From NCBI GenBank assembly GCA_963701855.1, contig CAVPBK010000005.1:224001-288000 (forward strand): a stretch of 64,000 nucleotides of DNA. Reading direction: 5' to 3'. The stretch's first letter is position 1. Each line of letters starts with the position of its first letter. Positions 2,439 through 59,745 of the stretch are shown here, one piece after another. The DNA comes from Nitrospirota bacterium (GTDB taxonomy: Bacteria; Nitrospirota; Nitrospiria; Nitrospirales; Nitrospiraceae). Made by a program: the position numbers and the translations under genes. Under the pieces are notes generated by a model. That model was not told the DNA's origin and did no database searches. It worked only from the letters and a program-made list of their open reading frames with translations.

Positions 2439-2560
2439 CTGGTCTGTCTGGTTTCTCTGGTCTATCTGGTTTGTTTTGTCGCTTGATCCGGAGAACCCAG
2501 ATACACAAGACAGACCAGACAGACGAGTAGACCAGACAGACCGAATTGACCGAATGAACA
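2439..2560. repeat. Inverted nonamer-array hairpin (CTGGTCTRT family), empty
   Basis: CTGGTCTGT-CTGGTTTCT-CTGGTCTAT-CTGGTTTGT at 2439-2474; reverse-complement-type CCAGAYAGA units at 2497-2560. Confidence 0.85.
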
Positions 2561-2566
2561 AGCCCA

Positions 2567-2595
2567 GCTGGGGGGATTTTTCAGCATCCTGCTAG
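2567..2595. repeat. Solo end of the TIR-bounded MITE family seen at 3691
   Basis: GCTGGGGGGATTTTTCAGCATCCTG resembles GCTGGCGGACTTTTTCAGCATTCTG at 3790-3814. Confidence 0.65.
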
Positions 2596-2629
2596 GATAT
2601 GGTGCTTGTGAGAAGCAGAGGAGGATTCG

Positions 2630-3166
2630 ATGGAACGAGCAGGGGTGACTAGTCTGATTGGTGCAGTGACATTATGGCTGGCGATGGTGTCGCCGGGGTT
2701 GTCGGCTGAAACCTTCCAGGTTGCGGTGATGGACCAACAAGTGGTCATCGCGCAGTCGAAGGCCGGCAAGCGGGCTTTGGAAGAACTCAAGGCCTACTCT
2801 GTAACTAGGCAAAAGATCATCAATGCCGACGATCAAGAACTGAAAGACTTGCAACAGGCGATTCAAGATGGGAAGTCGACTGACAGTGTAAAGCAAGAGA
2901 AGCAAGGTCAGTTTCAGGCCAAGTTGGATGCCTATCAACGCCGCCTTACTGACTTCAATCGCGAGATTCAACAGAAGCAGCGTGAAATGGTGGCGGAATA
3001 CTCGAAGAAGGTGCAGGCGGCCGCGCAAGCTGTGGGAGAAAAGAACGGGTATGCTGCGGTCATCGACAAGGGAAGCGAGGCGGCGATCAAGATCGTGCTC
3101 TATCATCAGCCCGCGTTGGATGTGACCGATCAAGTGGTGAAGGAGTTCGATCGACAAAATAAGTAG
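2630..3166 (+). CDS. skp: Second OmpH/Skp chaperone paralogue
   Basis: Signal peptide, VAVMDQQ, coiled coil, LDVTDQVVKEFD end. Confidence 0.85.
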   Translation: MERAGVTSLIGAVTLWLAMVSPGLSAETFQVAVMDQQVVIAQSKAGKRALEELKAYSVTRQKIINADDQELKDLQQAIQDGKSTDSVKQEKQGQFQAKLDAYQRRLTDFNREIQQKQREMVAEYSKKVQAAAQAVGEKNGYAAVIDKGSEAAIKIVLYHQPALDVTDQVVKEFDRQNK

Positions 3167-3690
3167 CGAGGAGGGGATGGAGCTTGATGCGCTTCTGTGC
3201 TCGCGCAACGCGCGGTCTCAGAAGGGTGGATAGGGAGCCGCCAGACCATCCTTCTTGCTCGCAGAACGCGTACGATGAAACGCTGCTCGTCCGATGCGCG
3301 CAGTGAAGGACAGTCCGGCGACTCCCTTGGGCGAGAAGGTGTGATGGTGCAAAGAAGGAAACAAGAGGCCCTCGCCCTGGGATAATGGCACGTCTCGGCG
3401 TGCCATTGGGTGGGCGGGTGAGAAAGTTGCGTGCCGTGGAAGATCAATCAGCTCCCATCCCTAAGAGAGAACGAGCAAGCTTGGAAGGACTATTGGACGT
3501 GCGCAGTAGGGGGCCAAACCAGACCGCTCCCGCAGAAGTAAAGCGAGCTTGGAGGGAGCGTTCGTAGTGTCGCCGCAACCTTAGAATGTACCTAATTGCC
3601 GATTGGCCTATAGTATTTTGTGAAGCACGTAGTTTATACACGAAACACCGTTAAAACTTTACATACATAATGGTGTCGATGTCACTGAGC

Positions 3691-3816
3691 ATCAGAATGC
3701 TCAAAGAGGCCGTCCAGCAAGGCCGCAGCGAGCGAAGAGGCCAGGCGTACGCTTCGGTACGTTGAACCTCTGAGCGATGCGAGAACGATGCTGGCGGACT
3801 TTTTCAGCATTCTGAT
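3691..3816. mobile_element. 126-bp MITE-like element with about 27-bp imperfect terminal inverted repeats
   Basis: ATCAGAATGCTCAAAGAGGCCGTCCAGC ... GCTGGCGGACTTTTTCAGCATTCTGAT; related ends at 2567 and 52847. Confidence 0.7.
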
Positions 3817-3832
3817 AGAGGAGGTTCTGCCG

Positions 3833-4291
3833 ATGTCCGTCATGGAGCAAGCTGAAATTCAGTCCATTCTGCCTCACCGGTATCCCTTTCTCCTGGTCGA
3901 TCGAGTGCAGGAGCTGGTTCCCGATCGGCGGATCGTAGGAGTCAAGAACGTGACGATCAATGAACCCTTCTTTCAAGGGCATTTTCCCGGGCGCCCTGTC
4001 ATGCCGGGGGTGTTGATTCTCGAAGCCATGTCTCAAGTCGGTGCGATTCTGGCGTTTAAGTCGCTAGGGAACGCAACACGTCCAGTGGTCTACCTGACCG
4101 GTGTCGATGGCGCGAAGTTCCGAAAACCGGTCGTGCCAGGCGATCGGCTGCGGTTTGAAATCGATGTCGTCAAGAAGCGGGCACCGTTCTGGAAGATGCA
4201 GGGCAAGGCGTTTGTCGAGGAAGACCTTGTCTGTGAAGCCGTAGTGACTGCGATGGTAACCGAGGAGAAAGACGTGAAGCGTGAAGCGTGA
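3833..4291 (+). CDS. fabZ: 3-hydroxyacyl-ACP dehydratase
   Basis: LPHRYPFLLVD and FFQGHFPGRPVMPGVL motifs; GAGGAGG RBS before ATG 3833. Confidence 0.97.
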   Translation: MSVMEQAEIQSILPHRYPFLLVDRVQELVPDRRIVGVKNVTINEPFFQGHFPGRPVMPGVLILEAMSQVGAILAFKSLGNATRPVVYLTGVDGAKFRKPVVPGDRLRFEIDVVKKRAPFWKMQGKAFVEEDLVCEAVVTAMVTEEKDVKREA

Positions 4292-4361
4292 AACGAAAAG
4301 AAATGTGGTCGGCATCCGTATGTGCGGTTCACGAATAACGATTCACAATGTGCGTCTCACT
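4273..4361. repeat. Inverted heptamer-array hairpin (CGTGAAA family), empty
   Basis: CGTGAAG-CGTGAAG-CGTGAAA-CGAAAAG (contains fabZ stop), then GTTCACG-AATAACG-ATTCACA-ATGTGCG-TCTCACT. Confidence 0.75.
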
Positions 4362-4372
4362 GGAGGTTCAGA

Positions 4373-8313: not shown

Positions 8314-10046
8314 ATCGCCTGATACGATTGGTCCGCTACCTCAAACCCTATCGGGTTCGGCTAGGTGCGGCGTTTGCGTGCTCGGGGTTGGTGGCGGCCT
8401 TCTCCGGCGCTTACGCCTGGCTCGTCAAACCGGTCCTCGACGAGATTTTCATCAACAAAAATGAAAGCCTCCTGCTGGTGCTCCCGCTTGCGCTCTTTGC
8501 CGTGGCGTTACTCAAGAGCATCTTCAACTATGGACAAAACTATCTCATGAACTATGTCGGGAATCAGGTGATCACCGACATTCGGCAAGAGCTGTTCGGC
8601 AAGCTCATTCGGCTGCCCGTTCCCTATCACGATGTGAATACTTCGGGGCGATTGGTGTCCCGTGTGGTGAGCGACGTCACGTTGATGGCCAACGCGGTGG
8701 CGGGGGTATTGAAAGATATTTTTCAACAGGGACTCACGTTTTTGGCCATGATGGGCGTGATCTTCTATCAGAACTGGCGGCTGGGCGGTCTCTCGGTGAT
8801 CGTTATCCCCTTGGCCGTATTCACGATGGTGCGGATGGGGAAGCGGCTGCGGTCATTAGCCGCAAGTGGCCAGGAGCGGATGGGGGATATGGCTTCCACG
8901 CTTCAGGAAACGTTATCAGGCATTCGCATGGTAAAGGCCTATGGGCGTGAAGAGTCGGAGGCGGCGCGATTTCAACAGAGCAACCGCTTGTTTCTCAGTA
9001 CGACGATGAAGGCGATTCAGGTCTCCTCCCTCGGATCATCGCATATGGAAGTGATCGGTGTCGTGGGGGTTGCCGCGATTATTTGGTATGGCGGATTTCT
9101 CGTGATCAACGGTTCGATGACGCCGGGAGAGTTTTTCTCATTTCTGACGGCGATGTTTATGGCCTATGCGCCGATTCGCAAACTGTCCGGTTCCAATAAT
9201 GCGATTCAACAAGCGCTGGCCGCGGCGGAACGGGTCTTTGGCGTGTTGGACCTCAAGACCGAGCAGGATGCGGAAAAGGGCCGGTTGGAGTTGCCGAGGA
9301 TTGCGCAGTCGGTGACGTTCGACGATGTGACGTTTCATTATGAGAGCCAATCAGTACCGGCGCTCAACGATATCAATCTGACGATTCGTGCCGGAGAAAT
9401 GGTGGCCCTTGTAGGCAGCAGCGGCAGTGGAAAGACGACGCTGGTCAATCTGATTCCGCGCTTTTACGAGCCGATAGCCGGCCGCATTCTCATCGATGGA
9501 GTCGATATTCAGTCGTACACCCTCCGCTCGCTTCGATCGCAGATCGGCATGGTATCGCAAGATGTGGTCTTGTTCGACGACAGTATTCGTAACAACATCG
9601 CATTTGGACGGGAAGATGCAACCGACGAAGATATTATCCAGGCGGCGCGACTGGCCTATGCCCATGATTTTGTCGAACGCCTTCCGCAGGGGTACCAGAC
9701 AGTCGTGGGAGAGAAAGGGGTAAAACTCTCCGGCGGGGAACGGCAGCGTGTGGCCATCGCCCGTGCGATTTTACGCGACCCTCCCTTGCTCATTCTTGAT
9801 GAAGCGACGTCGGCGTTGGACACCGAGTCTGAGCGTGTCGTTCAGCTGGCCCTCGCCAATTTGATGAAGAATCGAACGACCGTCGTGATCGCCCATCGGT
9901 TGTCCACGATTCAACGGGCTGATCGAATCATGGTGTTGGCCCGAGGGTCGATCGTTGAAGTGGGGACACACGACGAGCTGCTTTGCCGTGACGGACAGTA
10001 TAAGCGGCTCCATGCGATGCAGTTCCAGGATGTGCCCGATGCATAA
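8301..10046 (+). CDS. msbA: Lipid A export ABC transporter
   Basis: Transmembrane domain plus GSSGSGKTT, LSGGERQR, ILDEATSALD; lipid A context. Confidence 0.92.
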   Translation: MSTLDRLIRLVRYLKPYRVRLGAAFACSGLVAAFSGAYAWLVKPVLDEIFINKNESLLLVLPLALFAVALLKSIFNYGQNYLMNYVGNQVITDIRQELFGKLIRLPVPYHDVNTSGRLVSRVVSDVTLMANAVAGVLKDIFQQGLTFLAMMGVIFYQNWRLGGLSVIVIPLAVFTMVRMGKRLRSLAASGQERMGDMASTLQETLSGIRMVKAYGREESEAARFQQSNRLFLSTTMKAIQVSSLGSSHMEVIGVVGVAAIIWYGGFLVINGSMTPGEFFSFLTAMFMAYAPIRKLSGSNNAIQQALAAAERVFGVLDLKTEQDAEKGRLELPRIAQSVTFDDVTFHYESQSVPALNDINLTIRAGEMVALVGSSGSGKTTLVNLIPRFYEPIAGRILIDGVDIQSYTLRSLRSQIGMVSQDVVLFDDSIRNNIAFGREDATDEDIIQAARLAYAHDFVERLPQGYQTVVGEKGVKLSGGERQRVAIARAILRDPPLLILDEATSALDTESERVVQLALANLMKNRTTVVIAHRLSTIQRADRIMVLARGSIVEVGTHDELLCRDGQYKRLHAMQFQDVPDA

Positions 10047-10718
10047 ACCCGCCATGAAGCAAGTCGAGAAGTGGCTGAAGCTTTCTGTGCTCCCTCCAAT
10101 CGGGGCTGCGGTGATTCGAGGGCTGGGGCGGTCTATGCAGATGGATTCGCAAGGCCACGAGCAGGTGGATGCGTTGTATCGTCAGGGCAGGCATATCATC
10201 CTTGCGTTTTGGCATGCGCAGCAACTCATGGTCCCGACAGGCTATCGTGGAACAGGGGCTAACGTGTTGATCAGCCAGCATCAGGATGGTGAGATTATTG
10301 CGCGCATCATCTCTCGATTCGGGCATCGGGCGGTTCGTGGGTCGAGCACCAGGGGCGGAGCCCTTGCATTACGGGAGCTGATCCGCCTTGGGCGATCCGG
10401 AGCTGATCTGGTGGTGACTCCCGATGGACCCAAGGGGCCTCGCCAGGTTGCGAAACTCGGCGTGGTTCAGCTGGCAAAGGCGACCGGGCTTCCGATTGTG
10501 CCCCTGGCCTTTAGTTGCTCAAAAAAAAAATCTTCGCAAGCTGGGATCGGTTCATGGTCCCGTATCCATGGTCCCGAGGTCTCTATCTCTGGGGCGCTCC
10601 CATCTGTGTTCCACGAGATGCTGATGAGCAGGCGTTGGAGGCGGCATGCCTGGAGCTTGAGACGGTCCTGAATCGACTGACGGATCAAGCGGAAGAGGCC
10701 GTGAAACGTGAAACGTGA
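10039..10718 (+). CDS. DUF374 lysophospholipid-acyltransferase-like protein, split by a frameshift at the A10 run (10521-10530)
   Basis: FWH, DGE, VRGSS, TPDGPKGP in the first frame; expected SWDRFMVPYPWSR tail continues in the -1 frame to 10718. Confidence 0.8.
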
Positions 10719-10784
10719 AACGTTAAACGTAAGGAGTCCAGGGGCGTCGTTTTACCTTTCACCTTTCCCGTCTCACGTTTAACG
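10700..10784. repeat. Inverted heptamer-array hairpin (CGTGAAA family), empty; clearest example
   Basis: CGTGAAA x3-CGTTAAA-CGTAAGG, 15-nt loop, TTTTACC-TTTCACC-TTTCCCG-TCTCACG-TTTAACG. Confidence 0.9.
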
Positions 10785-10791
10785 CGCAGCC

Positions 10792-12219
10792 ATGTGGCGT
10801 CTCTTCTACAACATTCTGTTGCTGGTTGTTTCGCCGCTCATCGTGGCGGTCCTGCTGGCCAAGCGACGGTGCCGTCCCGGACTGCTTCAACGTCTGGGAA
10901 TAGGAAATAGTCTATCTGGGCTGTCTGGTCTATCTCGTCGACCGGATCAACCAGATAGACCAAACGAACCAGACAGACCTGATAGACCATCCCAACCAGT
11001 CATCTGGATTCACGCCGTTTCTCTTGGTGAAGTGGTGGCGGTGACACCCCTCGTCCACGAGCTCCATCGCCGTCATCCTGCGTACCTCCTGGTGGTCTCG
11101 ACGGTGACCGAGACCGGGCGGGAAGCAGTGGAGCAGCGGTTGGCCGGCGTGGCAGAACACTGTTATGCGCCGCTCGATTTCCCTTGGGTTGTTTCTCTGT
11201 TCATCGAACGATTGCAACCCTGCCTCTATCTGTTCGTCGAGACCGAACTCTGGCCGAATCTCTTGTGGCATCTGCGTCAGCGTGGAGTACCGACCGCTCT
11301 TGTGAACGGCCGGCTCTCGACCAGGTCTTTTGCACGGCAGCGGTGGGCGCCCGTGCGATCGTTCTATCGGACGATGTTGCAGACGCTCAGCCTCTGCCTG
11401 ATGCAGTCGGACCGGGACGTTGATCGTATCGTTGCGCTGGGAGCAGAGGCGTCGCGGGTCAGGCGAACAGGGAATATCAAGTTTGACCAGCCGATACCGG
11501 TTGTCGCGGAGGGTGCGACGACCAGGGCTCATCTTGGGCTTCAGGATACGGAACAGCTGTTTGTGGCAGGCAGTACCCATCCCGGCGAAGAAGAAATCCT
11601 CGTGGAATGCTATCGGGCGCTCGTGGCACGCTATTCCTCAGCGGTCTTATTGCTGGCACCTCGACACATTGAGCGAGCGGAATCGGTAGAGGCGATGATT
11701 CGGGCGCGCGGGCTCGCGGTGCAGCGACGCAGCACTATTGGGCAGGCCGGCGCGCGGAGGTCTACTGGTCCTCGTGTGGTGGTGCTCGATTCACGGGGGG
11801 AATTGGCTGCGATCTACCGGGAAGCGGTGGTGGCGTTTGTCGGAGGCACACTCGTTCCGATTGGTGGACACAATTTGCTGGAGCCGGCTCAGTGGGCAAA
11901 ACCGGTGTTATTCGGTCTCTACACTGACCATTGTGCGGAGATAGCAGATTTATTGATCCAGGCGGGAGGGGGCCGCATGGTTCTTCATGCGGAGGATCTC
12001 ACGCAACAAGTCATGGCCCTCTTTTCCGATGACAAGGAACGGGAGCGGATGGGCCGGTCGGCTCGTCAGGTGGTCGAACAGAATCAGGGAGCCTTGCAAC
12101 GGACGATGGAGGCCATCGATAGATTGCTGATACCGAATCAAGGCACCAGTGGGTCTCTTCTTGCAGACCGGTCGCTTTCCCTCACGGCTGAGAAAAGTGG
12201 CACCTACTCAGGTAGATAA
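10792..12219 (+). CDS. waaA: Kdo transferase with an in-frame repeat insertion
   Basis: IWIHAVSLGE, ETELWPN, GNIKFD, APRHIER, GGHNLLEPA motifs. Confidence 0.95.
   Translation: MWRLFYNILLLVVSPLIVAVLLAKRRCRPGLLQRLGIGNSLSGLSGLSRRPDQPDRPNEPDRPDRPSQPVIWIHAVSLGEVVAVTPLVHELHRRHPAYLLVVSTVTETGREAVEQRLAGVAEHCYAPLDFPWVVSLFIERLQPCLYLFVETELWPNLLWHLRQRGVPTALVNGRLSTRSFARQRWAPVRSFYRTMLQTLSLCLMQSDRDVDRIVALGAEASRVRRTGNIKFDQPIPVVAEGATTRAHLGLQDTEQLFVAGSTHPGEEEILVECYRALVARYSSAVLLLAPRHIERAESVEAMIRARGLAVQRRSTIGQAGARRSTGPRVVVLDSRGELAAIYREAVVAFVGGTLVPIGGHNLLEPAQWAKPVLFGLYTDHCAEIADLLIQAGGGRMVLHAEDLTQQVMALFSDDKERERMGRSARQVVEQNQGALQRTMEAIDRLLIPNQGTSGSLLADRSLSLTAEKSGTYSGR
10910..10988. repeat. Inverted nonamer hairpin in frame inside waaA
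   Basis: GTCTATCTG-GGCTGTCTG-GTCTATCTC then CCGGATCAA-CCAGATAGA-CCAAACGAA-CCAGACAGA-CCTGATAGA; encodes SLSGLSGLSRRPDQPDRPNEPDRPDRP. Confidence 0.9.
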
Positions 12220-12349
12220 GCTGAAGGCTGTTAGGGGTCAATCATGCGTGATCACACACAGCATCGGGAATTTGAGTCGGCTGATCGTAATCACTCGGGC
12301 AGATAGACTGAAGGTTTCAGCCTTCAGCCTTCGGCTTGAACACCTGAGT
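12205..12349 (+). mobile_element. GCTGAAG-family cassette carrying a deleted four-helix-bundle gene remnant
   Basis: Arms TACTCAGGTAGATAAGCTGAAGGCTG / CAGCCTTCGGCTTGAACACCTGAGT; ATG 12244 encodes MRDHTQHREFESAD, similar to [14 protein letters not shown] at 15175. Confidence 0.8.
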
Positions 12350-12360
12350 CGGTACGAAAC

Positions 12361-13443
12361 GTGTTAACTCCTGGGGAAAAAGTCAGAAGATGGCTGATGT
12401 GGGCCGCAATCCCCTATGGGGTGGTTGCGCGGTTGCGCGCACTCCTGTACGACTGGGGCTGGTTCGCCCAGCGGCGATTGCCGGTCCCCGTGCTGAGTGT
12501 CGGGAATCTCACGCTGGGAGGGACAGGGAAAACGCCGGTAGTTATTATGCTGGTCGATTGGCTTCTGGCGCAGGGGAAACGGGTGGCGATTCTCAGCCGG
12601 GGCTATCGACGGACAAGTACGGCCTCGTATCTGCTGGTGTCGAATGGCGAGCACCTGTTGGTCGGCCCGAGTGAGGCCGGTGATGAACCATTCTTGATGG
12701 CGCAGCGTTGCCCCAAAGCAATCGTGGCTGTCGGCGCTGATCGCTATGAGCTCGGTAACTGGGTCTTGAAGCGATTTCCGATCGATTATTTAGTGCTCGA
12801 CGATGGATTTCAGCACCTAGGACTCGCGCGCGACGTCAATCTCTTGCTGGTCGATGCCACGGATGCGGAGGGACTCGCGGCTCTGGTGCCGGCCGGTCGG
12901 CTCCGGGAACCGCTACGGGCGGCGGCGCGCGCGACTGCGATCGTCGTTACGAGGGCAGACGTGCCGGCTCAGGTGACAGAGGTCTGTCGCAGACTGCGGG
13001 CCACGCTCGGTTCGATGTCGGACCCAATCCAGGCGGTCTTTCGTCCGGAGAGTCTCGTATCGGTGGTGACCGGTGCTTCGCAGCCGCTCTCCTGGTCCAA
13101 GGGGAAAACGGCGCTGCTCTGCAGCGGCGTGGGTCATGCCGGATCGTTTCGCTCTCTCGTCGAGCGAATAGGGATCAGGATTCTTGATGAAATGGTCTAT
13201 GCCGATCACCATGCCTATACGAACCAGGATGTCGAACGACTGAGTGCCAGAGCAGTTGAGCTTCAGGCTGAGATGGTTGTGACGACGGAGAAAGATGCCA
13301 GCAAGTTGGCTGCGCTGCTCCAACCCACCGATAGCTGGTGGGCAGTCCGATTGAGCACCTATGTGATTGTGGGGGAAGATCGGCTGCGGCGGTTAGTTCT
13401 CGATAGGCTGAAAGCTGAAGGCATATCTTTCGGAGGGTTGTGA
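12361..13443 (+). CDS. lpxK: Tetraacyldisaccharide 4'-kinase
   Basis: SVGNLTLGGTGKTP, SRGY, GDEP, LDDGFQH, TTEKDA motifs. Confidence 0.96.
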   Translation: MLTPGEKVRRWLMWAAIPYGVVARLRALLYDWGWFAQRRLPVPVLSVGNLTLGGTGKTPVVIMLVDWLLAQGKRVAILSRGYRRTSTASYLLVSNGEHLLVGPSEAGDEPFLMAQRCPKAIVAVGADRYELGNWVLKRFPIDYLVLDDGFQHLGLARDVNLLLVDATDAEGLAALVPAGRLREPLRAAARATAIVVTRADVPAQVTEVCRRLRATLGSMSDPIQAVFRPESLVSVVTGASQPLSWSKGKTALLCSGVGHAGSFRSLVERIGIRILDEMVYADHHAYTNQDVERLSARAVELQAEMVVTTEKDASKLAALLQPTDSWWAVRLSTYVIVGEDRLRRLVLDRLKAEGISFGGL

Positions 13444-15559: not shown

Positions 15560-15565
15560 AACCGT

Positions 15566-18373: not shown

Positions 18374-18463
18374 TCTGTCTGGTCTATCCGGTCTGTTTGG
18401 TCCTTAAAATGTAAAGGCTTGATACTCGATAGACCAGATAGACCGAACAGACCAAAGAGACAC
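18363..18463. repeat. Inverted nonamer hairpin, empty
   Basis: AGTCTGTCT-GGTCTATCC-GGTCTGTTT-GGTC then GATAGACCA-GATAGACCG-AACAGACCA-AAGAGAC. Confidence 0.85.
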
Positions 18464-18468
18464 CAACT

Positions 18469-19317: not shown

Positions 19318-19344
19318 TATGACAGGCCGGCCAAGCGGCACATC

Positions 19345-20349: not shown

Positions 20350-20400
20350 TTAATGCAGGCTTGAGACGTTCCCTGATAACATTTTCCTGAAGGAACCGAT

Positions 20401-23499: not shown

Positions 23500-23502
23500 A
23501 GC

Positions 23503-46511: not shown

Positions 46512-47411
46512 ATGAAGATCTTGCTTCTGGGAAAGAACGGGCAGGTCGGTTTTGAGCTACAGCGTGCACTGGCTCCCTTAGGGGAAGTCTGTGCCGTTGA
46601 TCAACCTGAATGTGATTTGGCAGATGCATCTGCTATTCGTGAACTGGTGCGGTCGTTCAAACCAAACCTGATAGTCAATCCCGCTGCCTATACCGCAGTG
46701 GACAAGGCAGAGTCCGAGCCGGAGCTGGCTCACGCCATTAATACCGTCACTCCTGGAGTGCTCGGAGAAGAAGCGGCGAAGCAGGGCGCATGGGTGGTGC
46801 ATTATTCCACCGACTACGTGTTCGATGGCATCAAGCCGAGCGCATATACCGAAGATGACCCCGCGAATCCCCAGAGTATCTATGGTCGCACCAAAAGGGA
46901 TGGTGAAATCTCGCTACAACAAAGCGGGGTGCCGTACCTGATCTTTCGCACGAGCTGGGTGGTTGGAGCGCATGGCTGGAATTTTGCCAAAACCATTCTG
47001 CGATTGGCCGGTGAGCGCGAAAGTTTGAACGTGGTGGCCGATCAATATGGCGCGCCAACCTCTGCTGCTTTGCTGGCTGATGTGACGGCTCAGCTTGTCT
47101 GGCAGAAACAGCGTGAGGGGGGGGAGCGCTTCCCATTTGGTTTGTATCACCTGGTGGCCAGCGGTGAGACCAACTGGTGTGACTATGCGAGGTTTGTCGT
47201 GTCGGAAGCCCTCGCTGCCGGCAAGCTGCTCAAGCTCTCGCCGGATTCCATTCGTGCGATTACCTCTTCCGAATATCCGACGCCCGCCAAGCGTCCGGCC
47301 AATTCACGGCTGGATACCCGCAAGTTGCGCAGTACTTTTGAATTGGAATTGCCCAACTGGCAAAGCGGTGTCCGGCACATCCTTCAACAGATTCTGGCTG
47401 ATGGTAAGTAG
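46512..47411 (+). CDS. rfbD: dTDP-4-dehydrorhamnose reductase
   Basis: GKNGQVG, AAYTAVDKAE, STDYVFDG, YGRTK, DQYGAPT. Confidence 0.96.
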   Translation: MKILLLGKNGQVGFELQRALAPLGEVCAVDQPECDLADASAIRELVRSFKPNLIVNPAAYTAVDKAESEPELAHAINTVTPGVLGEEAAKQGAWVVHYSTDYVFDGIKPSAYTEDDPANPQSIYGRTKRDGEISLQQSGVPYLIFRTSWVVGAHGWNFAKTILRLAGERESLNVVADQYGAPTSAALLADVTAQLVWQKQREGGERFPFGLYHLVASGETNWCDYARFVVSEALAAGKLLKLSPDSIRAITSSEYPTPAKRPANSRLDTRKLRSTFELELPNWQSGVRHILQQILADGK

Positions 47412-47834
47412 TAAGTAATAAGTAGTGAGTGTGGAGTAGGAAATGAAGATGGGTAAGCCACACGAGCGGCTCGATGCTCGGAAGTTCTCGATGGAATTGG
47501 CTAAGGCGGTGTATCAGATGACCTCGAATTTCCAGGCAGAGGAGCGTTATGGATTGGCGCAGCAAATGAGACGTGCGGCCGTCTCTATTCCGCGTAACCT
47601 TGCGGAGGGTGCGGGTCAAAAATAGCGGAAAGGAATACGTTCATTTCATCGGTTTTTTACGTGGTTCACTCGCGGAGCTAGAAACTCAGATGCAACTGTC
47701 GGTGATGCTCGGTTTTACAATTGCCGATCATGCCGCATTCGATTTGGCTGATCGGGCAGGAAAATTGTCAACCGGTCTGCACAAAAAATGGAGCGCAGCA
47801 TGACCCCACTCCCCAGTTCCCACTCACCACTCTC
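47403..47834 (+). mobile_element. AGTRAGT/CYCCACT heptamer cassette enclosing a four-helix-bundle gene
   Basis: GGTAAGT-AGTAAGT-AATAAGT-AGTGAGT-GTGGAGT ... CCCCACT-CCCCAGT-TCCCACT-CACCACT. Confidence 0.75.
47443..47803 (+). pseudogene. Four-helix-bundle gene, frameshifted at the A run near 47620
   Basis: EERYGLAQQMRRAAVSIPRNLAEG then SGKEYVHF..RGSLAELETQ in the next frame. Confidence 0.88.
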
Positions 47835-48735: not shown

Positions 48736-48738
48736 CGA

Positions 48739-48799
48739 GATTCGAGGGACAAGGTTCAAGGGGATGGCACGATTTGAACCTTGCCCCTTGAATCTTGAA
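48739..48799. repeat. Inverted TTCAAGG/CCTTGAA heptamer hairpin, empty
   Basis: GATTCGAGGGACAAGGTTCAAG pairs with TTTGAACCTTGCCCCTTGAATC (22 positions: two G-U, one mismatch). Confidence 0.8.
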
Positions 48800-48945: not shown

Positions 48946-49518
48946 ATGGCTCAACGATCGGCAACGAAAAAAGCAGCTCGATCCAGAAAAGTACCGCGCA
49001 AGCTACTCCAACGGATCCGTCTGTTTGCCACCGATGTGGACGGAGTCTTGACGGACGGCGGAATGTACTATGCCGAATCCGGTGATGAGTGGAAGAAGTT
49101 CAACACGCGCGATGGCATGGGGATCAAGCTGTTGCAGAGGGCAGGAATCATCACCGCCATCGTCACGCAGGAGCGGACGAAGCTGGTGGCGCGGCGTGCC
49201 GAGAAGCTCGCGATTCCCGAGCTGCACCAAGGGGTGATGGATAAGTTAACGGTGATTGGGGAGATGGCGGCCAGACATGGGCTCTCGCTCAAGCAGGTGG
49301 CCTATATTGGGGACGATATCAACGATCTTGAGACATTGGAGGCGGTAGGGTTTTCCGCCACACCGGCCGACGGGATGCCCCTGGTTGTTGCGGTGGCCGA
49401 CTATATCTGTCAGAAGAAGGGCGGGGAGGGAGCGGTTCGGGAAATCATTGAGATGATTCTTGAGGCGCAAGGTCGAAGTTCAAAATTCAAAATTCCAGGT
49501 TCTGGAAAACGCTCATAG
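48946..49518 (+). CDS. kdsC: KdsC-family HAD phosphatase
   Basis: DVDGVLTDG, FNTRDGMG, YIGDDIND, GGEGAVRE. Confidence 0.85.
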   Translation: MAQRSATKKAARSRKVPRKLLQRIRLFATDVDGVLTDGGMYYAESGDEWKKFNTRDGMGIKLLQRAGIITAIVTQERTKLVARRAEKLAIPELHQGVMDKLTVIGEMAARHGLSLKQVAYIGDDINDLETLEAVGFSATPADGMPLVVAVADYICQKKGGEGAVREIIEMILEAQGRSSKFKIPGSGKRS

Positions 49519-49573
49519 GGTAGGAAACTCAGTGTATGGCCTCTCTCACACGCCGAACTTCGAAGCTTGGACT
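49467..49573. repeat. Degenerate inverted CRAARTT heptamer hairpin spanning the kdsC/manC junction
   Basis: CGAAGTT-CAAAATT-CAAAATT-CCAGGTT; GAACTTCGA at 49555-49563 is complementary to TCGAAGTTC. Confidence 0.5.
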
Positions 49574-51053
49574 ACATAATCATCTGTATCCCGTGATCAT
49601 GGCCGGCGGAAGCGGCACCAGATTTTGGCCGCTCAGCCGGCAGTTGTTTCCTAAACAGCTGCTTCGGATTTTGGGAGATGAAACGTTGATTCAGCAGACT
49701 ATGCGCCGAGTGGTCTGTGCGTCGGCGCCCAACCGGGTGATGATCTCCACGAATCCAGCTCAAGCAGAGTCCATTCGCGTCCAGCTGAGTGAATGGAAAG
49801 ATGCGCTCACAGATAATTTCGTGCTTGAACCGGAAGGGCGCAATACCGCTCCAGCAATTGCATTGGTGGCATTAGAACTGGTCCGCCGGGATCCTGACGC
49901 GATTATGTTGGTGGTTCCGGCCGATCATATTGTCAAAGGCCAGCGAGCATTTGATGCGGCGGTATTGTTGGCGGCGACGCTGGCGAAGCAAGACTATCTG
50001 GTGACCTTCGGCATCAAGCCGATTCGTCCAGAAACCGGCTATGGGTACATTAGGCCCAACTGGAAAGTGACGTTGGGAAAGCAGGGGACGCTCAAGGGAC
50101 ATCCGGTCAGCCGATTTGTTGAAAAACCCAATGCCACCAAGGCTGCGCAATATCTCAAGGCTGGGGACTACTACTGGAACAGCGGCATGTTTATTTGGCG
50201 TGCGGCAGCGATCCTCGATGAAATAAGCCGCCACCAACCCACCCTCTATCATGGGATCGAACGGATTGGCCAATTGATGCAGACTGGGGCGACCAGACAG
50301 GCCATCGACGATGCCTACAGGGCACTCACGTCAGTCTCGATTGATACAGGCGTCATGGAGCAGTCGAAGAAAGCGGCAATCGTGCCCGTGTCCTTTCAAT
50401 GGTCTGACGTTGGGAGTTGGGGGAGTCTGGATGAAGTGGCGCCGAGGGATAAGGCCGGCAATGTCATGGTCGGTCGTGTGGTCGACGTTGACAGCCGTCG
50501 ATCGATCGTCTACGGGGATCGCCGTCTCGTGGCGACGATCGGGCTTACCGACATGGTGGTGGTCGATACGCCGGACGCTACGTTAGTCTGTCCAAAATCA
50601 CGTGCGCAAGATGTGAAGCAGTTGGTCGAAATCCTGAAACGGCAGAACGCTCCGGAACATCTTGAGCATCTGACTGTGCATCGGCCCTGGGGGTCCTACA
50701 CGATTCTGGAAGAAGGTCTTGGTTACAAAGTGAAACGGGTGACGGTGAAACCGGGAGGGCGGCTCTCGTTACAGATGCACCATCGACGGAGCGAACATTG
50801 GGTGGTAATCACCGGGATCGCGCGAGTGACCAGGGGTGACGAGGTCTTCGATCTCAAAATTGGCCATAGCACAGAAATTCCTGTGGAAACCCGCCACCGG
50901 TTGGAAAACCACGGTCAAGAGACCCTGCATATCATTGAAGTGCAAAACGGACCTTACCTTGGGGAAGACGATATCGTCCGGTTTCAGGATGATTATGGGC
51001 GGGACGTTAATCGTGAAACGTTAACCGTGAAACGCAATAATCGGAAACTGTGA
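49536..51053 (+). CDS. manC: Mannose-1-phosphate guanylyltransferase / mannose-6-phosphate isomerase
   Basis: AGGSGTRFWPLSR, EPEGRNTAPA, FVEKP, WSDVGSW; cupin HRPWG, LSLQMH. Confidence 0.95.
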   Translation: MASLTRRTSKLGLHNHLYPVIMAGGSGTRFWPLSRQLFPKQLLRILGDETLIQQTMRRVVCASAPNRVMISTNPAQAESIRVQLSEWKDALTDNFVLEPEGRNTAPAIALVALELVRRDPDAIMLVVPADHIVKGQRAFDAAVLLAATLAKQDYLVTFGIKPIRPETGYGYIRPNWKVTLGKQGTLKGHPVSRFVEKPNATKAAQYLKAGDYYWNSGMFIWRAAAILDEISRHQPTLYHGIERIGQLMQTGATRQAIDDAYRALTSVSIDTGVMEQSKKAAIVPVSFQWSDVGSWGSLDEVAPRDKAGNVMVGRVVDVDSRRSIVYGDRRLVATIGLTDMVVVDTPDATLVCPKSRAQDVKQLVEILKRQNAPEHLEHLTVHRPWGSYTILEEGLGYKVKRVTVKPGGRLSLQMHHRRSEHWVVITGIARVTRGDEVFDLKIGHSTEIPVETRHRLENHGQETLHIIEVQNGPYLGEDDIVRFQDDYGRDVNRETLTVKRNNRKL

Positions 51054-51440
51054 TCCATGGAAATGGAAGGTACTGGGGAAGAGCAATCAATCATCAGAAC
51101 ATTCGAAGACCTCGATGTCTGGAAGGTGTGCAGAGACCTAAGAACGCAGATTGCGACCATAGTGCGCACGTTTCCAAGGGAGGAGCAATATCGGTTGCGG
51201 GATCAACTTATCAGGGCATCACGATCTGTTACGGCCAATCTAGCAGAAGGGTACGGACGATTTCATTACGCGGAGAACATCCAGTTTGCGAGGCAGGCAA
51301 GGGGCTCGTTATACAAAATCATAGTTACTACTCAGGTAGATAGACGGAAGGCTACAGCCTTCAGCCTGAACCCCTGACGAGTTACCGATATTTATCAAAA
51401 GCAAGAACGTCATCACGCGGTTCACGATTAACGAGTAACG
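51005..51440 (+). mobile_element. CGTGAAA-family cassette enclosing a truncated four-helix gene and a nested empty GCTGAAG element (51329-51377)
   Basis: CGTTAAT-CGTGAAA-CGTTAAC-CGTGAAA ... GTTCACG-ATTAACG-AGTAACG. Confidence 0.75.
51057..51377 (+). pseudogene. Four-helix-bundle gene whose C-terminus is replaced by the nested element
   Basis: TFEDLDVWK, FPREEQYRLRDQLIRASRSVTANLAEGYGR, ARGSLY then repeat-derived TTQVDRRKATAFSLNP. Confidence 0.85.
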
Positions 51441-51446
51441 AGGGTC

Positions 51447-53939: not shown

Positions 53940-54944
53940 ATGGCACAGTTTTCTCTTACTTTAAGCAGATTTATCACCCAGAAGCAGGCGTCCCATCCAG
54001 GGGCCACCGGGGAACTTTCCAGTCTCCTGGTCCAGATCGGTCTGGTTGGTAAACTCATTGCGCAGGATCTCAGGCATGCAGGGATCATCGATATTCTGGG
54101 AACGACAGGCGAGATCAATGTGCAAGGGGAGACAGTTAAGAAGCTGGATGAGATTGCGAATGAGACATTTCTCAACGCATTTCACCAGAACGGGCTTGTG
54201 TGCGCATTGGCGTCTGAAGAGATGGAAAAGCCGGTCCTGCTGCCGGAGAATTGGCCGCAGGCCAAGTACATGTTGCTCTTCGATCCTCTCGATGGCTCAT
54301 CGAACACGGACTGCAACATGCCGCTCGGCGCGATTTTTTCCGTCGTGAAGTTCGAGCGCAAAGATCGGATGCCGACCGAGGATGACCTTGCTCGCAAGGG
54401 AACAGAGCAGGTAGCCGCTGGCTATCTCCTGTTCGGGTCAAGCACCATGCTGGTCTATACGGTTGGACAAGGAGTCCACGGGTTTACATTGGAGCCTGGC
54501 ATCGGCGAGTATCTCCTGTCCCACGAGCAGATCCGCATTCCTGCTCGAGGCAAGGTTTATGGCGTAAACGAAGGCAATTATCATAAATGGACGGCGGGCA
54601 CGAAGAAGTATGTGGACGACCTGAAGGTCTCGGATAAAAACGCGGGGAAGCCTTACAGTGTGCGCTATTCCGGTTGTCTGGTAGCCGACGTGCACCGGAT
54701 TCTCCTCGGGGGAGGCATTTATCTGTATCCCGGTGAGCTGGACAAGCCGGAGGGCAAGCTCCGATTGTTATACGAAGCGAATCCCCTGGCGTGGGTTGTG
54801 GAGCAGGCGGGCGGCAGGGCCAGCACCGGCACTATGCGAGTCCTCGACGTGGAGGCCAAACAACTGCATCAACGGGTGCCGTTGATTATCGGGAGTGCGG
54901 AGGACGTGCGCGATGCAGAGGCATTCATCCAAGGCAGACGTTAA
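53940..54944 (+). CDS. fbp: Class I fructose-1,6-bisphosphatase
   Basis: NVQGE..KKLD, SEE, FDPLDGSSN, RYSGCLVADVHR, KLRLLYEANP. Confidence 0.96.
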   Translation: MAQFSLTLSRFITQKQASHPGATGELSSLLVQIGLVGKLIAQDLRHAGIIDILGTTGEINVQGETVKKLDEIANETFLNAFHQNGLVCALASEEMEKPVLLPENWPQAKYMLLFDPLDGSSNTDCNMPLGAIFSVVKFERKDRMPTEDDLARKGTEQVAAGYLLFGSSTMLVYTVGQGVHGFTLEPGIGEYLLSHEQIRIPARGKVYGVNEGNYHKWTAGTKKYVDDLKVSDKNAGKPYSVRYSGCLVADVHRILLGGGIYLYPGELDKPEGKLRLLYEANPLAWVVEQAGGRASTGTMRVLDVEAKQLHQRVPLIIGSAEDVRDAEAFIQGRR

Positions 54945-55029
54945 GCGTGAAACGTGAAACGAGGAAAATCCGGCCAAGTTTTTGACGATTGGCGGTTCAC
55001 GTTTAACGAATAACGTTCACGAATCTACG
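54939..55029. repeat. Inverted CGTGAAA-family hairpin, empty
   Basis: CGTTAAG-CGTGAAA-CGTGAAA-CGAGGAA then TTTGACG-ATTGGCG-GTTCACG-TTTAACG-AATAACG-TTCACG. Confidence 0.85.
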
Positions 55030-57549: not shown

Positions 57550-57570
57550 CCAGTTGCGGAAGAATTATCA

Positions 57571-57653
57571 GGCTTATCGGGTTTGTTTTGTTTATCTGGT
57601 TAGCGTTGTTCAACCAAACAAACCAGACAAACAGGACAAGCCAAATGAACCAG
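57571..57653. repeat. Inverted nonamer hairpin, empty, degenerate
   Basis: GGTTTGTTT-TGTTTATCT-GGTTAGCGT then AACCAAACA-AACCAGACA-AACAGGACA-AGCCAAATG-AACCAG. Confidence 0.75.
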
Positions 57654-57669
57654 GTAGGCGGCCCTGCCT

Positions 57670-58479
57670 ATGACATCGTGTCGAGTCGAACCAATCTTAC
57701 GTCAAGCCCATTTGGTGGTGGCGCTCGTGCCGGCTGCCGGCCGTGGGCTTCGGATGGGTGGCTCCGTCCCCAAACAATTTCTGTCGTTGGGTGGTGAGCC
57801 ACTCATCGTTCAGTCGTTACGGACATTGCAAGCTTCTTCCGCGATCGACCAGATCGTTCTTGCCGTTCCGCTTCCCGACGTTGAATACTGTGAGAACGAA
57901 ATCGTTTCGCGGTATCGATTCACCAAAGTGACGAAAGTGGTGGCGGGCGGTGCAGAGCGCCAGGATTCAGTGCGGTACGCGCTCACTCAGATCCCGTCGG
58001 ACACAGAGATCGTGCTTATCCATGATGCGGTGCGGCCTTTTGTGACGCAACGGATGATCGAAGAGGTCGTGGCTGCAGCGAGGAAAGAGGGCGCGGCGAT
58101 TATTGCACTTCCGATGCGGGATACCGTGAAGCAGGTACGGACGGATGGGACGATTGAGCGAACGGTCGATCGTACTCCCTTGTGGCTCGCCCAAACTCCG
58201 CAGGCATTTCGGCGGGACTTAATCGAGACTGCCCACAAGAAAGCGCATGCCGAAGGAATTCGGGCCACCGACGACGCCTTCCTGGTGGAGTGGTTAGGGT
58301 ATTCCGTGGCGGTGGTGGAAGGAAGCGGGGAGAATATCAAAGTGACGAGGCCTGAAGACCTGGTCATTGGCGAGGCTATTCTGGCGTCGCGAATCACGGG
58401 GAGCGGGACGCGCGAGAAGAGCGTGAAAAGCGGGACTGGCACGTCTCGCTCTTCGCGCCCGTCACGCAAATCTCGCTGA
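57670..58479 (+). CDS. ispD: 2-C-methyl-D-erythritol 4-phosphate cytidylyltransferase with a repeat-derived tail
   Basis: PAAGRGLRMG..PKQF, RQDSV, HDAVRP, QTPQ, TDD, NIKVT. Confidence 0.95.
   Translation: MTSCRVEPILRQAHLVVALVPAAGRGLRMGGSVPKQFLSLGGEPLIVQSLRTLQASSAIDQIVLAVPLPDVEYCENEIVSRYRFTKVTKVVAGGAERQDSVRYALTQIPSDTEIVLIHDAVRPFVTQRMIEEVVAAARKEGAAIIALPMRDTVKQVRTDGTIERTVDRTPLWLAQTPQAFRRDLIETAHKKAHAEGIRATDDAFLVEWLGYSVAVVEGSGENIKVTRPEDLVIGEAILASRITGSGTREKSVKSGTGTSRSSRPSRKSR
58401..58478. repeat. Inverted nonamer hairpin of a different family (GAGCGKGAM), in frame in the ispD tail
   Basis: GAGCGGGAC-GCGCGAGAA-GAGCGTGAA-AAGCGGGAC, 6-nt loop, GTCTCGCTC-TTCGCGCCC-GTCACGCAA-ATCTCGCTG. Confidence 0.75.
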
Positions 58480-58494
58480 GATAGAGGAGAGCCT

Positions 58495-58983
58495 ATGACA
58501 ATGCGAATCGGTTGCGGCTACGACATCCATCCGTTAGGACCAGGTCGGAAGTTGATTCTCGGCGGGGTCGAGGTGCCCCACAGTAAGGGTTTGATGGGAC
58601 ATTCCGATTCTGATGCCTTGGTCCATGCCCTCTGCGATGCGCTGCTTGGAGCGATGGGTGAAGGAGATTTAGGCCGGCACTATCCCAGTTCAGATCAGCG
58701 GTTCAAGGACATATCGAGTCTGAAGTTGCTGCAGGATGTCGTCGGGAAGATGCGGGGGAAGGGGTATCGTCTCGTGAACGCCGACACAGTCATTATCGCG
58801 CAGGCCCCTCGGCTCAGTTCGCACTTGGCAGCTATGCAGAAGCAAATGGCGCAGGTGCTCGGGGTCGATCCGGACCTCGTCAACGTCAAGGTGAAGAGCG
58901 GAGAGGGAATCGGCATGATCGGTCGGGAGGAAGGGATTGCCGCCCAGGCGGTCTGTTTGATTGAACGGCCTTCGACAGCTTAA
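58495..58983 (+). CDS. ispF: 2-C-methyl-D-erythritol 2,4-cyclodiphosphate synthase
   Basis: RIGCGYDIH, GHSDSD, HALCDALLGA, GREEGIAAQA. Confidence 0.96.
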   Translation: MTMRIGCGYDIHPLGPGRKLILGGVEVPHSKGLMGHSDSDALVHALCDALLGAMGEGDLGRHYPSSDQRFKDISSLKLLQDVVGKMRGKGYRLVNADTVIIAQAPRLSSHLAAMQKQMAQVLGVDPDLVNVKVKSGEGIGMIGREEGIAAQAVCLIERPSTA

Positions 58984-58995
58984 GATAATTCGACT

Positions 58996-59649
58996 ATGGT
59001 CCTGAAAGCCATCAGAGAAGATCTCCGGGCCGTGTTCGACCGAGATCCGGCGGCGACGAGTTGGCTTGAAGTCGTGCTGACCTACGCCGGCTTTCATGCC
59101 GTATCGGCCTACCGCGTATCCCATTGGCTCAAGACCCATCATATCCCGTTTCTTCCCCGCTTCATTTCTCAGACTGCTCGCATTCTGACGGGAATCGAAA
59201 TCCATCCTTCGGCGACGATTGGTACCGGGTTCTTCATCGACCATGGAATGGGTGTGGTCATCGGCGAGACGGCAGAGATCGGAGATTATGTGACCCTCTT
59301 TCAGGGTGTGACGCTTGGTGGGACGGGGAAGGAACGAGGGAAACGCCATCCTACGCTTGGCAATCACGTGGTCGTCGGAGCGGGGGCCAAGATTCTCGGC
59401 GGTATCACGGTCGGCGACAATGTGAAGATCGGCGCCAATTCGGTCGTGCTCAAGAACGTCGTTGCCAATTCCACTGTCATTGGAGTGCCGGCCCGCGTCA
59501 TTAAAACTCAAGGCGAACGGCTGCCCGACGCCACCATGGACCACAGTAACCTGCCGGACCCAGTCAGTGACCGGCTCATGGCACTCGAGCAGGAGTTGAT
59601 CGAATTGCGCAAGAAGCTGGAAAATCAAGACTCCCCCCGCCTGCTCTAG
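58996..59649 (+). CDS. cysE: Serine O-acetyltransferase
   Basis: [38 protein letters not shown]. Confidence 0.96.
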
Positions 59650-59656
59650 CGAGACG

Positions 59657-59745
59657 GGTTTATCTGGTCTGTCTGGTTCATCTGGTTAGTTTCGTTCAAC
59701 CAAACACACGAGACAGACCGAACAGATCAGATGGACCAGTCAGAC
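59657..59745. repeat. Inverted nonamer hairpin between convergent cysE and truA
   Basis: GGTTTATCT-GGTCTGTCT-GGTTCATCT-GGTTAGTTT then AACCAAACA-CACGAGACA-GACCGAACA-GATCAGATG-GACCAG. Confidence 0.85.

Follow-up and report, generated by a model that had tools for sequence, protein, structure and literature searches.

What are the short inverted tandem arrays that stand at so many gene junctions in the envelope gene cluster of this Nitrospirota bacterium, and why do genes for a four-helix-bundle protein lie among them? The window analysed here is a stretch of 64,000 nt, positions 224001-288000 of contig 5 of the source genome G000 (GCA_963701855.1; 4.30 Mb in 15 contigs, 97% complete), which by Pfam-based annotation is almost wholly one plus-strand envelope supercluster. 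A sequence-only reading had listed 23 places in it at which an array of a 7-9 bp unit is followed by a loop and the reverse-complementary array, and had proposed that arms and enclosed gene form a unit, either an intervening sequence of the mRNA or a mobile cassette. All 23 places were folded and scored against shuffled sequence, a site with z <= -2 being called clear. The architecture proved real and specific, and the reading as cassettes with derivatives holds for one family of sites, for which a named transposase family is the likely mover. We put at roughly two in three the probability that the sites are dispersed families of insertable hairpin elements, with genes of the family PF05635 as the cargo of their full-length form.

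The family that carries this conclusion has arms built of the unit GCTGAAG. A BLAST search of the genome with the cassette at 15110-15570 returned many partial copies, and alignment of the GCTGAAG copies revealed common ends: the left end starts GTAACTACTCAGGT and the right end is its reverse complement, the terminal inverted repeats beginning GTAACTACTCAG (GTAAC...GTTAC). The copies form a size series, from the gene-bearing full form of about 460 bp (window 15133-15562) through a gutted form of 177-188 bp, of which G000 holds several copies and which has spread to several places, and another derivative of 156 bp (window 12200-12355) to an empty form of 63 bp (window ~51324-51386). At least eight gutted copies have an identical internal deletion, by which the final ~110 nt of the gene come to follow the leader directly. 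The 156-bp derivative (z -3.7) consists of the left end, the first ~50 nt of the PF05635 gene, a complete empty hairpin and the right end. Perfect 8-bp target duplications were found at five places. At locus L036 of genome G009 the element is flanked by GTATGGTC / GTATGGTC, and the empty site in G000 has a single copy; at L054 of G015, the closest relative of G000, the flanks are TCTTGGGG / TCTTGGGG and the empty site in G000 reads TCTTGGGA. The duplications CCTTCGTT / CCTTCGTT at L039, CTTAAATC / CTTAAATC at L044 and GATTATTC / GATTATTC at contig 9:49582 have no empty site that we saw. Flanks matching at seven of eight bases occur at window 12200 (GAAAAGTG / GAAACGTG), at contig 1:89412 and at a full-length, gene-bearing copy in G013 (contig 282); no duplication is present at copies L041, L045, L051, L055 and L057. 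The end motif occurs in 52 of the 61 genomes of the genus at 0-59 copies each, with 36 matches in G000, and a reversed-pattern control gave about none.

Inverted ends, 8-bp duplications (8/8 at five places), two empty sites and a length of 63-188 bp, which are among the marks of a miniature inverted-repeat transposable element (MITE), were found in the GCTGAAG family only. As judged from aligned ends and empty sites, this family is a true miniature transposon with 8-bp target duplications; its transposon nature and its series of full, gutted and empty forms are described here for the first time. The proposal of a mobile cassette is thus borne out by the duplications and empty sites of this family, whereas no target duplications were seen in the others. 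Likewise, the descent of empty hairpins from cassettes is supported here by a series with a common deletion breakpoint and is only plausible elsewhere. Two of the gutted copies, at contig 3:2383 and 65930, are one locus counted twice because contig 3 is palindromic. Its positions 1-68395 form a large imperfect palindrome, in which 17086-51588 is self-inverted at 94.7% identity and 1-8621 matches 59773-68395 at 99.8%; the palindrome may be an assembly artefact.

The ends of the family suggest which enzyme moves it. In the passages of PMC12898284 that describe ISDge4 of Deinococcus geothermalis, an insertion sequence of the ISBst12 group of the IS66 family, the element has the ends GTGACTACTCAGCA / GTAACTGCTCAGCA, an 8-bp direct repeat and a 449-aa transposase. 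The GCTGAAG ends, of the GTAACTnCTCAG type, match each of these ISDge4 ends at 11 of the 12 terminal bases. Given this terminal match and the equal duplication length, we read the GCTGAAG family as a MITE-like derivative with ISBst12-type ends; unlike ISDge4 as described there, it carries a PF05635 gene and heptamer arms in place of a transposase. It resembles MITEs in general in that its elements are small, lack a transposase, occur in many copies and form a deletion series, and we found no published link of ISBst12 with MITEs in the literature.

Several observations weigh against this assignment. A search for the IS66-family transposase (DDE_Tnp_IS66) found none in G000, which is 97% complete, and among the 60 other genomes of the genus that were searched it is present in only 10; the genome with the highest copy number, G074 (59 copies), is without it. 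A matching end was present at one of 12 transposase loci, on contig 18 of G075 beside a 450-aa open reading frame (ORF), and on one side only. Absence of the transposase is weak evidence, because draft assemblies often lose insertion sequences. Furthermore, none of the 80 PF05635 loci of a cross-phylum sample has the GTAACNNCTCAG end; the ISBst12 route therefore belongs to one lineage only and cannot explain the whole class. The sole match of the IS66 search in G000 is an IS256/Mutator transposase; its ends are unrelated, and it was rejected. When ends up to 6 kb apart in G000 were paired, nine pairs resulted. Eight bound elements of 63-188 bp, and no transposase lies inside these small pairs; the ninth spans 2.6 kb on the palindromic contig 3 and has a left end with two mismatches. 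A 1.15-kb interval between GCTGAAG-type ends in G074 was also rejected, as it holds an ordinary dehydrogenase gene and not a transposase. Copy number of the ends follows presence of the cognate gene in a loose trend with clear exceptions, among genomes that are not independent of one another. The earlier remark that no transposase is in view calls for a qualification, in that the ends match an ISBst12-group element; no transposase of that kind was found in G000.

Do the genes belong to these elements? A profile search of the genome found six PF05635 loci, four of them in the window and all four on the plus strand; their scores of 105, 96.5, 78.1 and 63.8 bits against a Pfam cut-off of 33.8 confirm the membership that had been proposed for the four four-helix-bundle genes, and a further check upheld it for 28185 and 51057. 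Intact genes are present at 28185-28565 (126 aa, plus strand) and on contig 11, and the other four are broken. The gene at 15175-15534, on the plus strand within the full-length GCTGAAG element (15133-15562), has an in-frame TAG at 15358-15360, where the intact G015 orthologue has a tyrosine codon. A plus-strand cassette with CGTGAAA/CGTTAAC arms (51004-51034 and 51418-51442, within 51004-51442) holds a gene from 51057 that is cut at profile position 72 of 106, its 3' end being replaced by the empty GCTGAAG element (~51324-51386). The gene at ~47443-47790 and the copy on contig 6 are also broken; the former follows a GTAAGTA array at 47404-47430 (47404-47790 in all, plus strand), and a right arm was looked for there and not found. 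Each gene has its own arm unit, namely GCTGAAG (15175), a period-9 unit (28185), GTAAGTA on the left only (47443), CGTGAAA (51057), AGGTTGA (contig 11) and GCTGAGT (contig 6). The intact gene at 28185 is preceded by a complete period-9 hairpin (28082-28180, z -3.8) and followed by a third, reverse period-9 array of 4.7 units (28555-28596), which contains both its stop codon and the start codon (28580) of a NusG-like gene.

Terminal inverted repeats form a stem around the ORF at 15175, 51057, the contig 6 copy and 28185 (first array with third), and not at 47443. Accordingly, the statement that all four window genes lie inside loops stands for 15175 (ends ~15133 and ~15562) and 51057, takes the form of hairpin, gene and third reverse array at 28185, and fails at 47443, where there is a left arm only. 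All four cassettes are situated between protein-coding genes of the lipopolysaccharide/polysaccharide cluster and not in a 23S rRNA gene, where intervening sequences occupy helix 25 or 45. The flanks of the six loci have complementarity scores of 9, 15, 8, 13, 10 and 17, whereas the same score has a median of 7 and a 99th percentile of 11 over 2216 small genes; three of the six are among the highest 0.5% and five among the highest 6%. This score alone is no proof of a unit of arms and gene, since a high value is also reached by ordinary genes that happen to lie between a pair of hairpins. The top value in the whole genome belongs to a 213-aa gene on contig 10 (74894-75535) with a 43-nt inverted repeat that is not of the heptamer type.

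The cross-phylum sample comprised 80 PF05635 loci from many phyla, 70 of them usable. Complementary flanks (score >= 11) were found at 43 of the 70, against 1/70, 3/70 and 4/69 in three controls, and scores of at least 16 at 30 loci, against 0-1 in the controls. Among those 43 loci, 31 have a clear arm periodicity (autocorrelation >= 0.6), and it is 7 in 28 of them. Moreover, the protein clade of the 15175 type recurs with GCTGAAG ends at non-orthologous places in different genomes. That the same clade travels with the same ends, together with the cross-phylum flanks, upholds the view of arms and gene as one unit.

A unit of this kind admits another reading, in which the PF05635 protein is the recognition or mobility factor of the elements themselves, a multimer that binds its cognate 7- or 9-nt units and recruits a nuclease, polymerase or recombinase, in parallel to RAYT (the tyrosine transposase associated with repetitive extragenic palindromes) and its REPIN hairpins or to Avd and the reverse transcriptase of diversity-generating retroelements (DGRs); the empty hairpins would then be its non-autonomous clients. 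PF05635 is the sole gene in the full-length elements, the six genes each stand in arms of a different family, five of these families also have gene-less copies, and the 15175-type clade retains GCTGAAG arms from place to place and from genome to genome. Strong purifying selection on the 28185 protein (see below) also fits a working factor, as do the closest solved structures, PDB 2gsc (E 8e-10) and 2rld, which have five chains in each deposition, beside arrays that commonly count 3-5 units. Against it, G046 (44 copies, best E 4e-13) and G054 (52 copies) are without a cognate full-length gene, Pfam gives PF05635 only and no recognisable catalytic domain, four of the six genes in the genome are broken, and the GCTGAAG ends point to an ordinary DDE transposase. 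The genome has four reverse transcriptase matches, none adjoining a PF05635 gene. No Y1 (HUH) gene flanked by the dispersed repeat was found among those inspected: of the four Y1_Tnp genes, which are IS200-like, one (L238) has its own unrelated GC-rich hairpins and another a different inverted repeat, and the remaining two are near-identical copies. We consider this role of the protein unlikely.

The insertable-element reading extends beyond GCTGAAG to families with other units. The period-9 family has more than 40 strong copies, many with a conserved loop motif in either orientation, and this common motif points to dispersal of a common sequence. In the CGTGAAA and GCTGAGT families the arms are alike and the loops are not. 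Inspection by eye of CGTGAAA, GCTGAGT and period-9 copies revealed no target duplications, which tells against the insertable-element reading. A generic scan for flanking repeats, over 38 cross-phylum cassettes and 101 hairpins, found none above controls; it also missed the known 8-bp positives, because its arm extension stops before the true ends.

Comparison of orthologous junctions showed extensive turnover. At one and the same site, where the flanks of the two genomes are 92-97% identical, a GCTGAGT hairpin in G000 corresponds to a period-9 hairpin in G015. The gmhB-GT9 junction, in 17 loci, is hairpin-less in one (63 nt), has an empty GCTGAAG element in one, CGTTAAC-type hairpins in three and GCGAGAG-type hairpins in three; two others have gutted or partial cassettes, six have full cassettes and one is masked. 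The manC-pgm junction, in 18 loci, displays at least six unit families, with full cassettes at three loci in G000 and G007, two of them from G007, and at L081 a CGTTAAC hairpin that encloses an empty GCTGAAG element. At the DUF374-waaA junction, five of seven loci are CGTGAAA-like and two are of GCTGTCA type. The anticipated polymorphism of filled, empty and absent states was thus observed, the relatives carrying other families, a cassette or nothing. Nesting recurs as well: within the window at 51324-51386, 46230-46420 and 12200-12355, and elsewhere at L081, at L003 and in period-9 arrays inside a 124-bp MITE. This suggests that existing hairpins are preferred landing sites. Mobility of the families other than GCTGAAG is indicated by dispersal and replacement. 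Two side observations concern G000: the hairpin-rich contig 9:36001-56000, of which ~1.8 kb matches G015 at more than 90% and most is without counterpart, which suggests a variable region, and ~11 kb of near-perfect 354-bp tandem repeats at contig 6:1189068-1200066.

How are such insertions tolerated? The idea that heptamer units act as stop signals in every frame meets a mixed picture: many contain TGA (CGTGAAA, GCTGAAG, GCTGAGT), and several others (TGGCGAG, TTCAAGG, GTTCGAG) do not. The stop codon (15144-15146) of ORF 13440-15146 falls in the left end of the GCTGAAG element, the last ~16 codons of ManC are encoded by a CGTGAAA arm, and the NusG-like ORF begins within the reverse period-9 array. 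Two hairpins lie in frame inside genes. One, of period 9 (10907-10990, z -6.1), separates the N-terminal helix of waaA (ORF 10792-12219) from its Kdo-transferase domain. An insert of 56-125 nt is present there in 17 of 17 loci, keeps the frame in 15 and folds with z <= -2 in 13 of 16; the exceptions to the frame are G015 (L002), which is out of frame, and L010, which is masked. In G015 the hairpin measures 120 nt and precedes the start of the long waaA ORF, owing either to a real frameshift or to an assembly error in the repeat. The other hairpin, also of period 9 (14469-14584), forms the linker between the GT9 and GmhB-like HAD domains in ORF 13440-15146. This linker is open in 20 of 21 loci, at 153-216 nt with all lengths multiples of three and in three unit families, and folds with z <= -2 in 17 of 20, against 0 of 16 control pieces inside genes. 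ORF 13440-15146 is itself a GT9 heptosyltransferase and a HAD (GmhB-like) phosphatase fused by a hairpin-encoded linker, and in the L008 relative the linker has stop codons, so that a two-gene state exists too. Over these loci, the stretches at both in-frame sites fold far better than shuffled sequence. Conservation of in-frame hairpins across the genus could equally mean a host function, a point against the insertable-element reading.

The intact gene at 28185 also tells against that reading, for by its conservation it behaves as a resident gene and not as a recent insertion. Within the genus, 27 loci have an orthologue in this position, which is intact in 24, and the median ratio of nonsynonymous to synonymous substitution rates (dN/dS) is 0.077 over 132 pairs, a value by which the gene is under strong purifying selection. 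The layout of complete hairpin, gene, third reverse array and NusG-like gene is constant in the orthologous loci, and the unit variant, GGTCTRTCT or GGTTTGTYT, shifts on all arrays of the locus together; upstream and downstream arrays have a mean complementarity of 15.3 within a genome and 12.3 between genomes. The three-array arrangement recurs, built of GTTCGAG units, at two paralogues from another locus. As the 28185 gene stands between two arrays of the same sense, it might be lost precisely by a simple route. A conserved stretch, TGTAAGTGAAAGGGCGGAGCTG (~28040-28075), lies 5' of the 28082 hairpin in nearly all orthologous loci, just upstream of the NusG-like gene and the polysaccharide genes; we take its GGCGGAGC core to resemble the ops/JUMPStart element recognised by NusG paralogues of the RfaH type.

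All families share a set of habits, being dispersed, mainly at gene ends, nested in loops, interchangeable at junctions and tolerated in frame inside two genes, and we propose the following putative model for them. In it the two arms, inverted tandem arrays of a 7- or 9-nt unit, make each copy fold as a long hairpin, the PF05635 gene is the cargo of the full-length form, and most copies are gene-less. A transposase of the ISBst12-group (IS66 family) type would move the GCTGAAG family in trans, and new copies of all families would home to existing hairpins or gene ends. Afterwards, selection would retain only insertions that give a stop codon or stay in frame. Finally, RNase III would probably cut the long stems on polycistronic RNA, as in 23S rRNA intervening sequences, and such cutting would take the cassette out of the operon transcript. 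Read contigs from two DNA and two RNA runs of mixed relatives, over window 10000-29999, include the cassette-skipping joints 15158>15536 and 28178>28554, which have sides of just 21-30 nt and derive from repeats elsewhere.

The same hairpins might instead be regulatory structures of operon RNA, through which the host processes or stabilises transcripts, pauses transcription or couples translation. They would arise where they stand and be reshaped there by slippage and by conversion between arms, with the PF05635 genes and the transposon family as incidental occupants. This would account for a hairpin being kept at the same junction across the genus though its sequence family differs, for the good folding of the in-frame waaA and GT9-HAD hairpins, for the concerted change of the 28185 arms, and for the placement of hairpins nearer to stop codons than to starts (median distances of 29 nt and 64 nt). 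It would leave unexplained the same unit families, and the period-9 loop motif in either orientation, at dozens of unrelated places, the range of 0-59 copies among congeners, the clean insertions with target duplications and empty sites, and the complete replacement between genomes with 92-97% identical flanks. Nor are the stems classical intrinsic terminators, as they have no U-tract: by sequence, with no dedicated terminator scan made, no T-run follows those at 2439, 18363, 48739 and 57571. We regard this host-structure explanation as distinctly improbable.

The arrays as a class are far above chance. A whole-genome scan found 54 tandem arrays of period 7 and 73 of period 9, whereas other periods gave 3-29 and a Markov-1 control 0-4. 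Genome-wide, 57 of 216 arrays of period 7 and 92 of 421 of period 9 have an inverted partner no more than 700 nt away, compared with 11/303, 3/97, 5/88 and 0/115 for periods 6, 8, 10 and 11; direct partners were rarer (11 for period 7 and 26 for period 9). Merging gave 114 sites in 4.3 Mb, 101 of them with a loop of at most 100 nt. A crude gene model, under which 77% of the genome is coding, makes 83 of these 101 short hairpins intergenic, 9 partly so and 9 within genes; the genes on either side point the same way at 64 sites, converge at 12 and diverge at 7, near the genome mix of 72/14/14%. At its threshold this automatic census finds just six sites within the window. The placement between stop and start held in part: 12 of the 23 listed sites begin no more than 20 nt from the stop of the preceding ORF.

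Folding likewise divided the 23 listed sites. Twelve are clear hairpins (2439, 10910, 18363, 28082, 57571, 59657, 12205, 51329, 48739, 54939, 58401 and 49467), and three (15136, 51005 and 47403) are single arms of a long-range pair, each folded alone. Seven have visible arms and fold near shuffled sequence (z -0.5 to -1.7; 4273, 10700, 23413, 14469, 7063, 46207 and 46235), a point against the insertable-element reading, and folding gave no hairpin support at 6022 (z +0.7). At 49467 the weak heptamer arms (49451-49585, z -2.5) surround the stop, ribosome-binding site and start of the HAD-manC junction; that junction folds with z <= -2 in 0 of 20 relatives when sequences are folded one by one, and the site is accordingly weak. 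Variation in the register of the tandem units made consensus folding of 15 orthologous HAD-manC junctions miss the arms. Chance complementarity of low-complexity repeats, which could claim the sites that fold like shuffles and the failure of HAD-manC in 20 of 20 relatives, is contradicted by the period specificity, the asymmetry of inverted over direct partners and the Markov and reversed-pattern controls, and has next to no probability.

The remaining sites of the window illustrate the preference for gene ends. A period-9 (GGTCTRTCT) hairpin directly follows the skp stop codon (2437) at 2439-2551 (dG -58.5, z -8.2); others of period 9 overlap the stop of ORF 17609-18373 (18364-18461, z -6.1), lie 16 nt past the stop of a degP-like gene (57565-57643, GGTTTGTTT variant, z -3.9) and, with the conserved loop motif, 8 nt past the stop of ORF 58996-59649 (59657-59719, z -2.2). 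A TTCAAGG-type 22-bp hairpin at 48738-48795 (z -6.3) stands directly after the stop of an rmlA-like gene (48735), a CGTGAAA hairpin at 54938-55016 (z -2.8) overlaps the fbp stop (54944), and a GAGCGGG-type hairpin at 58401-58467 (z -2.8) lies within the 3' end of ispD (ORF 57670-58479); its unit type is also found at the gmhB-GT9 junction of three relatives. Among the weaker sites, a CGTGAAG array of three units at 4273-4335 (z -1.1), with a single unit as right arm, overlaps the fabZ stop, a CGTGAAA hairpin at 10700-10784 (z -0.6) occupies the DUF374-waaA junction, 29 nt downstream of the end of the DUF374 ORF at 10671, and a short CGTTRAN array at 23413-23450 (z -0.9) lies at the stop of ORF 22313-23425. 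The TGGCGAG-type arrays at 46207-46222 and 46456-46496 (46207-46496 in all) enclose the GCTGAAG-family derivative at 46230-46420.

The supercluster around these sites comprises bamA, two skp genes, fabZ, lpxA, lpxI, lpxB, msbA, DUF374, waaA and lpxK, and further several GT9/GT2/GT4 transferases, the NusG-like gene, a wzy-like gene, rml genes, manC, pgm, fbp, a degP-like gene and ispDF. An IS3-type integrase-core transposase (rve, rve_3) with a small upstream ORF, at 26050-27176 on the minus strand, breaks the plus-strand cluster just before its polysaccharide-specific part. A run of ORFs without Pfam matches (~31300-39500), with an adjacent G+C content of 0.51 (36-40 kb) and 0.48 (40-44 kb), is typical of a variable O-antigen/polysaccharide region. 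The genome further has a MITE of ~124 bp that is unrelated to the heptamer arrays, though some copies enclose period-9 arrays. Its ends start CAGGATGCTGAAAAAGTCCG, with 363 end matches and 107 paired copies genome-wide, mostly of 121-126 bp, and it often adjoins CTAG; the window holds a complete copy (3693-3814) and one end (2573-2597), and G015 has an extra copy where G000 has none (contig 1, ~90080).

The closest known system is that of the intervening sequences in 23S rRNA genes of Coxiella burnetii and Leptospira. As set out in the relevant parts of PMC4990558, an S23p/PF05635 ORF lies there in the loop of a long inverted-repeat stem (28 bp in Coxiella), tandem heptamers (GACAGAT) adjoin the ORF in Coxiella, their number varies between strains, and the ORF decays; RNase III excision has been shown in that system, and older proposals cited in the same parts held these sequences to be remnants of transposition. 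The present cassettes are alike in the ORF within an inverted-repeat stem, the adjoining heptamers and the decay of the ORF. They differ from what is described there in standing between or in frame within protein-coding genes, whereas the intervening sequences lie in helix 45 of 23S rRNA, and in having many unit families, mostly gene-less copies and one family with transposon ends and 8-bp duplications. Direct heptamer repeats have been reported as well: PMC4679880, on the TAACTGA repeats of cyanobacteria and Beggiatoaceae, counts 169 sets as direct and a single set as inverted. The likeness to them lies in intergenic tandem 7-nt units in 2-6 copies by gene boundaries, with one preferred unit per lineage; they are direct, whereas the arrays here are inverted, and the main text of the paper is without the terms S23, four helix and intervening sequence. 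The REPIN/RAYT system differs from the present elements in that its flanked gene is a Y1 transposase and not a four-helix bundle. In that system dispersed intergenic hairpins accompany a master gene that is flanked by inverted copies of the repeat. Further heptamer tandem repeats of cyanobacteria are the short tandemly repeated repetitive (STRR) sequences. Rickettsia palindromic elements are hairpin-forming miniature elements tolerated in frame within genes, and Neisseria Correia elements stand at gene junctions, where their transcript is cut by RNase III; these have other sequences and hosts, arms that are not tandem 7/9-nt arrays and no PF05635 cargo. We found no published description of such cassettes outside rRNA, subscription journals lying outside the literature search. 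In the open literature searched, PF05635 is named in a single paper, a DGR review, and TIGR02436 in none. To our knowledge, the large family PF05635, of unknown function, has been recorded only in rRNA intervening sequences and as kin to the DGR accessory protein Avd.

A wider reading, which we hold to be doubtful and offer tentatively, is that PF05635 genes with inverted heptamer or nonamer arrays make up a widespread, undescribed class of elements that home to hairpins. In it, a protein multimer would read the 7-nt units of its own arms and copies would land in gene-end hairpins; the rRNA intervening sequences and many unexplained heptamer repeat families of bacteria would be special cases or remains, and the ISBst12-type ends of the GCTGAAG family a secondary capture by which one lineage acquired another means of moving.

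For the genus, the insertable-element reading means that tolerated hairpins contribute a domain linker and C-terminal tails to proteins, provide stop codons and in one case a start codon, and that in annotation many small tails, fusions and odd starts are products of hairpin elements. The handles at hand are a family whose ends and 8-bp duplication are defined and for which there is a candidate transposase family, a natural series of full, gutted and empty forms, and swaps of family at junctions. The miniature-transposon family links the rRNA intervening sequences to a wider class of insertable cassettes, and if PF05635 genes are normally the cargo of hairpin cassettes, where the rRNA intervening sequences and the heptamer arrays come from and what the protein does would become testable together.

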